Assembly (NCBI RefSeq): GCF_046105845.1
Contig: NZ_CP151004.1
Length of the DNA: 64,000 nucleotides
Direction: 5' to 3' (one strand)
DNA from: Escherichia coli
Lineage (GTDB): Bacteria; Pseudomonadota; Gammaproteobacteria; Enterobacterales; Enterobacteriaceae
Of the stretch, positions 55,921-56,510 are shown piece by piece. The notes beneath the pieces are model-generated. The model did not search any database. It worked only from the letters and a program-made list of their open reading frames with translations, and was not told the origin of the DNA. Each line of letters begins with the position of its first letter. Position 1 is the stretch's first letter. A program made the translations under genes and the position numbers.

Positions 55921-55922
55921 AG

Positions 55923-55973
55923 TTAGTTCCCCGTCCTGAATCTTGAGAAACAGAATTTTGTGCTGTTATTCAT
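55923..55973 (-). CDS. ilvX: Small protein IlvX (16 aa) between ilvL and ilvG
   Basis: Minus-strand ATG AAT AAC AGC ACA AAA TTC TGT TTC TCA AGA TTC AGG ACG GGG AAC TAA = [16 protein letters not shown], ending 2 nt before the ilvG ATG. Matches my recollection of the annotated E. coli small protein. Confidence 0.45.
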
Positions 55974-56003
55974 TGTCTGCTCCTCGGTTATGTTTTTAAG
56001 GTC

Positions 56004-56037
56004 AAAAAAAACCCCCGGACCTTTCGGTGCGGGGGTC
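56004..56037 (-). terminator. ilv attenuator terminator
   Basis: Minus strand reads TAAGACCCCCGCACCGAAAGGTCCGGGGGTTTTTTTTGACC: GC-rich hairpin plus U8, directly after ilvL. Confidence 0.75.
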
Positions 56038-56059
56038 TTAGTTCGTTAAGGCTTGATCT

Positions 56060-56158
56060 CTAAGCCTTTCCTCGTCCAAGTGCAGCCCCGCACGGTGGGA
56101 TAATAATCACCACCACGCTAATCACGACCAGGCTAATCACTCGTAGAAGGGCTGTCAT
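56060..56158 (-). CDS. ilvL: ilvGMEDA operon leader peptide
   Basis: My own minus-strand translation: MTALLRVISLVVISVVVIIIPPCGAALGRGKA (32 aa), rich in Val, Ile and Leu regulatory codons. Confidence 0.85.
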   Translation of the reverse strand: MTALLRVISLVVISVVVIIIPPCGAALGRGKA

Positions 56159-56510
56159 TTTGTCTTTTCTTGCATCTTGTTCGAAGGAATGCCTAAAGAG
56201 TTACCATAGATTTTGCGAATAGCACAAGATATTTTTTGGCCGATTTTTATGATGCCTTTAATAATTTCAACAGAAAGCATTGTTTTTTAAAAATAAAATA
56301 GTGAGTGAAAAAAATTCAATTTCAGTATGAATGTTGTTCCCTTCCTCGTAGTTAATCCTTTGTCCACTGCATTTTTGCGAGCATCGTTCCACCGCCAGAA
56401 CAACTCAACTTCACTTGCACAAATAAACAGGAATCAGCCACTAAAATTCACGAATTAGCGGGCTACAGCAGCGATATCTTATGCACATAATGGTGACTCA
56501 AGGAGGGCTT

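Follow-up and report, generated by a model that had tools for sequence, protein, structure and literature searches.

In the control region of the isoleucine/valine biosynthesis operon of Escherichia coli, the spacer that separates the attenuator from ilvG, the first structural gene, contains a 16-codon open reading frame (ORF), ilvX, and the question raised by this locus is whether that frame is kept for its peptide, for its translation or for the nucleotides that it spans. The locus was analysed in a window of 64,000 nucleotides from E. coli (RefSeq assembly GCF_046105845.1, contig NZ_CP151004.1), where the operon lies on the minus strand. The region 55921..56160 is almost certainly the regulatory leader of the ilvLXGMEDA operon, and no observation speaks against this; the role of ilvX is a separate matter and is graded on its own below. 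As an attenuator with ilvX the region is already known and annotated, being the textbook control region of the operon.

Searches with megablast revealed that a 631-bp region covering the leader is present in 5,425 of 5,426 complete E. coli genomes. One genome, that of strain AST215, is 100% identical over the 631 bp and has ilvL, ilvX and ilvG annotated beneath the match. Transfer of the RefSeq coordinates from AST215 and K-12 MG1655 placed ilvL (b3766) and ilvX (b4669) exactly on the predicted ORFs, and the translated peptides are identical to WP_001311244.1 (‘ilv operon leader peptide’, b3766) and to WP_001387183.1/YP_002791259.1 (‘peptide IlvX’, b4669), respectively. The comparison with annotated ilvL and ilvX proposed in a preliminary description of this DNA therefore gives exact agreement in both peptides and coordinates. 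Every part named in that description falls within 55921..56160, and it had correctly observed that both ORFs are missing from the ORF track, a mere effect of the length cut-off. A 16-codon ORF alone is not beyond chance; ilvX stands above chance because it exactly matches annotated ilvX and is conserved across species. The DNA is identical to that of K-12 MG1655 from about 20 nt 5′ of the leader start to past the ilvG ATG, and the gene order in the window (yifB / ilvL ilvX ilvG ilvM ilvE ilvD ilvA / ilvY ilvC) is colinear with that of an annotated E. coli genome.

The leader also matches the Rfam family RF02744 (Rev39_5p_UTR) with 157.1 bits against a gathering threshold of 88 (E = 3e-49; model 1-300, window 55940..56229). 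This family originates from an sRNA screen in Pectobacterium and derives from ‘rev_39, 5′ UTR: ilvG’, one of the novel sRNA candidates given for Pectobacterium atrosepticum (PMC4710047), which raises the alternative that the region is a stand-alone small regulatory RNA (Rev39) and not an attenuator; Term-seq in K-12 does detect stable 3′ ends inside the leader. The source paper itself, however, classes rev_39 as ‘5′ UTR: ilvG’, and RF02744 and the ilv attenuator are thus one and the same element. Directly 5′ of ilvG lie a leader ORF with many branched-chain codons, a terminator and an antiterminator that competes with it, the sequence is identical to the experimentally characterised attenuator of K-12, and attenuation itself is expected to leave a terminated leader transcript, here a leader RNA of roughly 190 nt. 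A stand-alone sRNA is accordingly a most improbable reading of this region.

Table 1 Features of the ilv control region in the window, in the order in which they are transcribed.
Feature	Position	Strand	Basis and details
ilvGMEDA promoter and upstream activating region	56195..56330 (approximate limits)	-	Position inferred from the ilvPG promoter literature (PMC10783518) and the K-12 alignment
5′ untranslated leader RNA	56159..56194 (5′ end approximate)	-	AGGYATTCCTTCGAAC conserved across genera
ilvL, 32 codons and UAG stop	56060..56158	-	ORF, translation, Pfam/NCBIfam, RefSeq
Protector structure	56085..56152	-	Minimum-energy fold; GCCCU (56152..56148, codons 3-4) pairs with GGGGC (56089..56085, codons 24-25)
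ilvL regulatory codons 4-20	56099..56149	-	14 of 17 are Leu/Val/Ile (3 Leu, 6 Val, 5 Ile)
Val/Ile-codon hairpin, enclosed by the protector	56118..56090	-	Minimum-energy fold; GCGUGGUGG/CCACCGUGC
Antiterminator	56027..56093	-	GUGCGGGG (56093..56086, ilvL codons 22-25) pairs with CCCCGCAC (56034..56027)
Small hairpin with the ilvL stop codon in its loop	56048..56068	-	Leader fold; AAGGCUU/AAGCCUU
Intrinsic terminator (attenuator)	56003..56045	-	Stem GACCCCCGCACC (56037..56026), loop GAAA, GGUCCGGGGG (56021..56012), eight U (56011..56004)
Predicted hairpin sequestering the ilvX Shine-Dalgarno (SD) sequence	55945..55985	-	Inferred; GAGGAGCAGA (55985..55976, holds the SD) pairs with UCUGUUUCUC (55954..55945, ilvX codons 7-10)
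ilvX, 16 codons and TAA stop	55923..55973	-	Translation; RefSeq ‘peptide IlvX’, b4669; 16-aa product
Lrp-consensus-like block	55951..55965	+	CAGAATTTTGTGCTG (plus-strand letters); 2 mismatches to yAGhAwATTwTdCTr
ilvG SD, inside ilvX codons 14-16	55928..55932	-	Read from the sequence; GGGGA, with GGGGA or GGAGA conserved across species
ilvG, first structural gene	54274..55920	-	ORF; intact, 548 aa

Direct translation of ilvL gives a peptide of 32 residues, MTALLRVISLVVISVVVIIIPPCGAALGRGKA, in which 15 of the 32 codons specify Leu, Val or Ile, the same figures as are given for the ilv leader peptide (32 aa, 15 branched-chain residues; PMC6123439). The ORF is recognised by Pfam PF08046 (61.5 bits, cut-off 25) and by the equivalog NCBIfam NF007744 (81.9 bits, cut-off 59). 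The reading of ilvL in the preliminary description, a 32-aa ORF rich in Val, Ile and Leu codons, is borne out by this translation and matches the RefSeq annotation. For comparison across species, a scan of species-representative genomes for a pattern encoding VVVIIIPPCG yielded 120 Enterobacterales loci and a 102-species alignment (A2). The leader peptide is almost unchanged at all 120 loci, with the conservation around ilvL codons 15-24 being partly imposed by the search pattern itself.

The minimum-energy fold of the full leader consists of three elements: a large 5′ structure, the small stop-codon hairpin and the terminator. Within the first, the protector pairing and the Val/Ile-codon hairpin that it encloses would jointly occupy the 5′ strand of the antiterminator as long as no ribosome stalls. 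The terminator folds with -23.3 kcal/mol (z = -3.7), a stability reached by 0 of 200 shuffles, and the antiterminator, at -27.4 kcal/mol (z = -4.0), is likewise far more stable than its shuffles. The strand CCCCGCAC of the antiterminator belongs also to the 5′ arm of the terminator, so only one of the two structures can form at a time. A fold prediction of the alternative structures, as had been suggested, thus recovers both terminator and antiterminator, mutually exclusive through this common strand, and the GC-rich hairpin with U8 described after ilvL is present with exactly eight U. The consensus terminator scan missed this minus-strand terminator, which has a bulged stem, and its plus-strand terminator call was judged spurious. 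Rfam matches to PyrR, Pseudomon-1, His_leader, sau-41 and NsiR1 over the terminator hairpin score 14-21 bits, far below their thresholds, and were set aside as chance.

Across the 102 species the 8-bp helix of the antiterminator is paired in every one (102/102) and the core C-G pairs of the terminator are invariant; pairing in the two protector helices amounts to 89% and 99.9% of cells, and the search pattern covers part of the second helix. As the core pairs of terminator, antiterminator and protector never vary, covariation neither supports nor tests them. The sole clear compensatory change in the leader is found in the stop-codon hairpin, in which 47 species have A-U and 40 have G-C at pair 152:186 of alignment A2.

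When the full leader was folded at equilibrium with the footprint of the ribosome masked at each codon, the terminator always won (P ~0.92-0.98), and the choice between antiterminator and terminator must therefore be kinetic. In a second set of folds the transcript was ended before the 3′ arm of the terminator and the ribosome was placed codon by codon. The antiterminator then forms with the ribosome on most of codons 2-19 and is lost with the ribosome on codons 20-22; with the ribosome on codons 10 and 13-15 its probability is low (0.13-0.18).

These structures are consistent with the following sequence of events. A ribosome would translate ilvL while RNA polymerase proceeds toward the attenuator, and a shortage of charged tRNA for Leu, Val or Ile would stall it within codons 4-20. 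The stall would break the protector pairings and free GUGCGGGG, which could then pair with CCCCGCAC; with the antiterminator formed there would be no terminator, and polymerase would read through into ilvX and ilvG-M-E-D-A. With Leu, Val and Ile all plentiful, the ribosome would reach the ilvL stop codon and the antiterminator strand would be either covered or held by the protector. Lacking a free antiterminator strand, the transcript would form the GC hairpin followed by eight U, and transcription would end at about 56004. These steps are established for the identical leader of E. coli K-12, in which the antiterminator is favoured when the 15 branched-chain codons are translated slowly (PMC6123439). 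The attenuation response can be assigned to the present leader because its sequence is 100% identical to that of the characterised K-12 leader; the response of readthrough to amino acids is thus carried over from K-12, while the evidence from the window itself consists of the sequence and its predicted competing structures.

The start of transcription is placed approximately 35 nt upstream of ilvL. UAS1, the element of the ilvPG promoter to which IHF binds, lies some 90 bp upstream of the point where transcription starts (PMC10783518), and an AT-rich tract resembling it occurs within 56195..56330. A consensus promoter scan returned just one weak sigma-70-like candidate. The promoter/UAS segment is polymorphic within E. 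coli: compared with K-12 it carries 12 substitutions clustered in ~70 bp, all within ~100 bp upstream, in the promoter and UAS.

The closest known system is the ilvL attenuator of E. coli K-12: the sequence between the leader start and ilvG is the same, and so are the leader peptide of 32 aa, both competing structures (terminator and antiterminator) and the operon context. The ilvGMEDA leader attenuator of K-12 was reportedly described by Lawther & Hatfield in 1980 and by Nargang et al. in the same year. The two loci differ in that ilvG is a frameshifted pseudogene in K-12 and is intact here, its product matching NCBIfam NF006524 (equivalog, acetolactate synthase 2 catalytic subunit) with 1074 bits over positions 1-547 of 548. 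The attenuators of trpL, hisL, leuL, thrL and ivbL follow the same logic, with a short leader ORF rich in regulatory codons, alternative pairings that act as protector, antiterminator or terminator, and a U-tract, whereas ilvL is multivalent and senses Leu, Val and Ile together. The Rfam His_leader model reaches 15.9 bits where its threshold is 49, and homology in sequence is therefore absent. To our knowledge, in none of these five systems does a further small ORF follow the attenuator ahead of the first structural gene.

The peptide and position of IlvX (b4669) are identical here to those annotated, without any sequence difference. What the present comparison adds is that the frame, and not the peptide, is conserved across Enterobacteriaceae, Erwiniaceae, Pectobacteriaceae and Yersiniaceae; this comparative picture and an Lrp-like core described below are small additions to what is known. 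The mycobacterial ‘ilvX’ is an unrelated acetolactate synthase paralogue. An SD sequence, GAGGAG, has its 3′ end 6 nt upstream of the ilvX ATG, and at the other end of the frame only CT (55922..55921) separates the TAA (55925..55923) from the ilvG ATG at 55920. The minus strand therefore reads TAA-CT-ATG, in keeping with the earlier statement that ilvX stops 2 nt before the ilvG start.

To survey ilvX in the 102 species, ilvG was located by tblastn and the 53 nt before its ATG were read. No ilvX-type frame was found in 22 of the 102, which belong to the Morganellaceae and Edwardsiella. Among the remaining 80 species, 72 have a 16-codon frame at exactly -53..-2 with the 2-nt gap (raw counts, ignoring kinship). 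Starts in these 72 are ATG in 63 and GTG in nine (Citrobacter and Salmonella), and stops are TAA in 67, TGA in four and TAG in one. Four variants still end at the ilvG start, namely Hafnia (1-nt shift), a metagenome-assembled genome (15 codons), Superficieibacter, which has lost the stop and ends in an AUGA overlap, and Budvicia, with a longer frame. The start or frame is lost in the other four: two Pluralibacter, Cedecea colo and Kluyvera genomosp. 3.

The pattern of change within the frame bears on whether IlvX is a small protein acting in trans, for example by modulating an enzyme or a membrane protein. The gene is annotated as encoding a protein (b4669, ‘peptide IlvX’), and a study that names the operon ilvLXGMEDA describes ilvX, with reference to Hemm et al. 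2008 and 2010, as coding for a small peptide (PMC9299463). Conservation is fair over residues 4-8 (S-I/T-K-F/S-C); Cys8 is present in 64 of 64 distinct sequences, encoded by UGU in some and by UGC in others, and Gly15 is nearly invariant. Against a trans-acting peptide, the changes are not of the coding type: entropy at codon positions 1/2/3 is 0.66/0.96/0.91 bits in ilvX, the second position being the most variable, compared with 0.13/0.04/1.15 in ilvG from the same species, and the pooled pN/pS is 0.67 compared with 0.05. Residues 2-3, 9-13 and 16 take many unrelated amino acids. Codons 4-8 (AGC AYA AAA UUC UGU) are the sole part of ilvX conserved at all three positions. On these comparisons, which ignore kinship, selection seems to act on the frame, on its length and on the way it joins ilvG, and for the most part not on the amino-acid sequence.

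Two candidate nucleotide-level constraints, which overlap in the conserved core, would fit its conservation. One is a predicted RNA hairpin that would sequester the ilvX SD (-11.4 kcal/mol, z = -3.2), in which, for the window, the SD is predicted to be unpaired with a probability of 0.001; over 71 species, pairing holds in 84% of cells, compared with 52-59% in slid controls, with almost no covariation. The other is a putative Lrp operator, a block resembling the E. coli Lrp consensus yAGhAwATTwTdCTr as quoted in PMC5554404. It has 0-1 mismatches in 47 of the 102 species and keeps the same position in 69, whereas the background rate of such sites is ~0.15 per kb. Edwardsiella, which is without ilvX, carries a perfect Lrp consensus, AGAATAAAATTCT. 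The conserved residues of IlvX coincide with the Lrp-consensus block and the ilvG SD and so can be explained at the nucleotide level, and the persistence of the block in Edwardsiella without the ORF argues likewise against selection on a trans-acting peptide, which we consider improbable.

The same core suggests that the ilvX frame could be a by-product, the spacer being conserved for an Lrp operator, two SD sequences and perhaps an RNA hairpin, and any translation of ilvX being incidental and of no consequence to ilvG. The closeness of the core to the Lrp consensus and its fixed position would agree with this reading. Lrp represses the ilv operon, and a 1996 study by Rhee et al. reportedly deals, to go by its title, with how Lrp interacts with DNA in the operon's leader region. 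The absence of the frame from the Morganellaceae and Edwardsiella and its breakage in four other species point in the same direction. So does a study of GcvB, which is reported to repress ilvL via the GcvB R1 region, in which an ilvX translational fusion was unaffected by GcvB (PMC9299463). A by-product does not, however, account for the variable codons 2-3 and 9-13 never gaining a stop in the 72 frame-keeping species, for the other two reading frames being open in just 14 of 64 distinct sequences and closed in 50, or for the interchange of ATG with GTG starts and of TAA, TGA and TAG stops, always at the same positions (all three ignoring kinship). The SD GAGGAG moreover lies at the right distance from the ilvX start. 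Taken together, the open variable codons, the closed alternative frames, the fixed start and stop positions and the SD indicate selection on the frame itself, and an incidental frame appears rather unlikely.

We therefore tentatively favour a role in cis, in which the translation of ilvX ahead of ilvG would matter and its peptide would not, either by coupling to ilvG or by covering the spacer against Rho. Ribosomes ending at the ilvX stop would find themselves just past the ilvG SD, with 2 nt left to the ilvG AUG, and may help to load ilvG; alternatively, ribosomes on ilvX may keep the spacer RNA covered. Translational coupling from ilvX to ilvG, as suggested in the preliminary description, is plausible because the 2-nt spacing between stop and start is strictly conserved in 72 of the 80 species, and the location of the ilvG SD within ilvX codons 14-16 is consistent with it. 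A coupled pair of similar design occurs within the operon, since ilvG and ilvM (ATGA overlap) also have stop and start within a few nucleotides and the downstream SD inside the upstream frame.

Several observations weigh against the cis role. As ilvG has its own SD (GGGGA, 55932..55928), and this is well placed, coupling is not required for ilvG translation. Four species are without a usable ilvX start or frame, the Morganellaceae and Edwardsiella do without ilvX, and the invariant Cys8 would also fit a peptide function. A conserved structure masking the ilvG start was sought in the spacer and none was found, and in this respect ilvX-ilvG may differ from coupled pairs. The fold of the whole spacer is no better than its shuffles (z = -0.28), and the RNAalifold consensus comprises 6 bp at -2.3 kcal/mol. 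Weak AUUCA/UGAAU pairing over the ilvG AUG is present in the window. UUCUGU can pair with ACGGGG beside the ilvG SD (95% of cells, compared with 53-71% in slid controls), with a consensus of just -2.3 kcal/mol, as a weaker alternative to the hairpin over the ilvX SD. The ilvG SD itself has a median unpaired probability of 0.40.

A complete attenuator and a 16-codon annotated gene can thus be recovered from raw sequence alone. The function of ilvX is still listed as unknown, and the conserved frame, length and junction, the free peptide and the Lrp-like core lead to a cis hypothesis that can be tested. In its fuller form, which we hold with more reserve than the cis role as such, ilvX would persist in at least four families of the Enterobacterales for its reading frame, of fixed length and with a fixed 2-nt gap to ilvG, rather than for a protein; its only conserved core would be both an Lrp operator and one arm of the SD hairpin, and ilvX would serve as a cis device linking ilvG loading or protection from Rho to events after readthrough, possibly to Lrp occupancy. 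The intact ilvG makes the present strain more suitable than K-12 for testing this hypothesis.

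The leader, ilvL and ilvX show no difference from E. coli K-12, and the window carries an intact ilvG, the product of which matches the model for the catalytic subunit of acetolactate synthase 2 over its full length, whereas the K-12 locus is a frameshifted pseudogene (b4488). Upstream of the leader, the window and K-12 differ by 12 substitutions, which are clustered within ~70 bp. The promoter and UAS stretch is unusually variable within E. coli, with identities to the window of 88-100%, and only 2 of the 5,425 complete E. coli genomes matching the attenuator region have exactly the promoter allele of the window. 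Several of the promoter bases in the window are common to E. albertii and other Escherichia species. An open reading frame of 41 codons overlaps the promoter, and its 3′ end overlaps the start of ilvL in the sequence ATGA. It is probably spurious, because its ATG arises from one of the promoter substitutions specific to the window (ACA in K-12). The yifB gene is transcribed divergently from ilvL, and its annotated start lies 10 codons into the longest reading frame.

Features of the ilv leader region and its surroundings, with the loci (Enterobacterales species-representative scan) of the genera that lack the ilvX frame
Feature	Position or loci	Strand	Remarks
ilvG	54274-55920		intact, 548 aa
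Rfam RF02744	55940-56229		'Soft rot Enterobacteriaceae Rev 39 5'UTR'
Lrp-consensus-like block	55951-55965		match to yAGhAwATTwTdCTr
41-codon ATG ORF	56155-56280	-	overlaps promoter
Promoter and UAS stretch	56196-56300		~100 bp directly upstream of leader; polymorphic
yifB	56481-58031	+	comM-like Mg chelatase-family ATPase
No ilvX frame, Photorhabdus	L003, L010, L028, L038
No ilvX frame, Providencia	L063, L064, L074
No ilvX frame, Proteus	L069
No ilvX frame, Edwardsiella	L021, L033, L094

The Rfam family RF02744 is in fact the ilvL attenuator together with most of ilvX. Neither is mentioned in the family name or description, and the source paper lists the entry as a novel sRNA candidate, '5' UTR: ilvG' (PMC4710047). 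Published Term-seq data for K-12 place RNA 3′ ends inside ilvL at 3950400 and 3950406 (window 56080 and 56074), which were scored as not Rho-dependent. These ends map to the 3′ base of the large predicted 5′ structure, away from the U-tract of the terminator, and could reflect either a terminated leader trimmed back to stable structure or a pause site.

Conservation of ilvX at all three codon positions is limited to a block which, with 2 mismatches in the window, matches the Lrp-binding consensus and is a putative Lrp site. Such a block with no more than one mismatch is present in 47 of the 102 species compared, and the position is fixed in 69. Edwardsiella is without the ilvX reading frame, yet has a perfect AGAATAAAATTCT.

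Isolated losses or variants of ilvX occur within the Enterobacteriaceae. The frame is shifted by a 1-nt deletion in Kluyvera genomosp. 3 (locus L073), and the start codon is changed to CTT, AGC or AAC in three species, belonging to Pluralibacter (L023, L087) and Cedecea colo (L093). In Superficieibacter sp. (L092) the stop codon is changed to TCA, so that the frame runs on and its end overlaps the ilvG start as AUGA. The ilvX frame is absent from the Morganellaceae and Edwardsiella. These groups retain the ilvL attenuator, and their spacer is of comparable length; in Providencia and Proteus it is A-rich and not alignable to that of other species. The design of the ilv operon therefore does not require ilvX.
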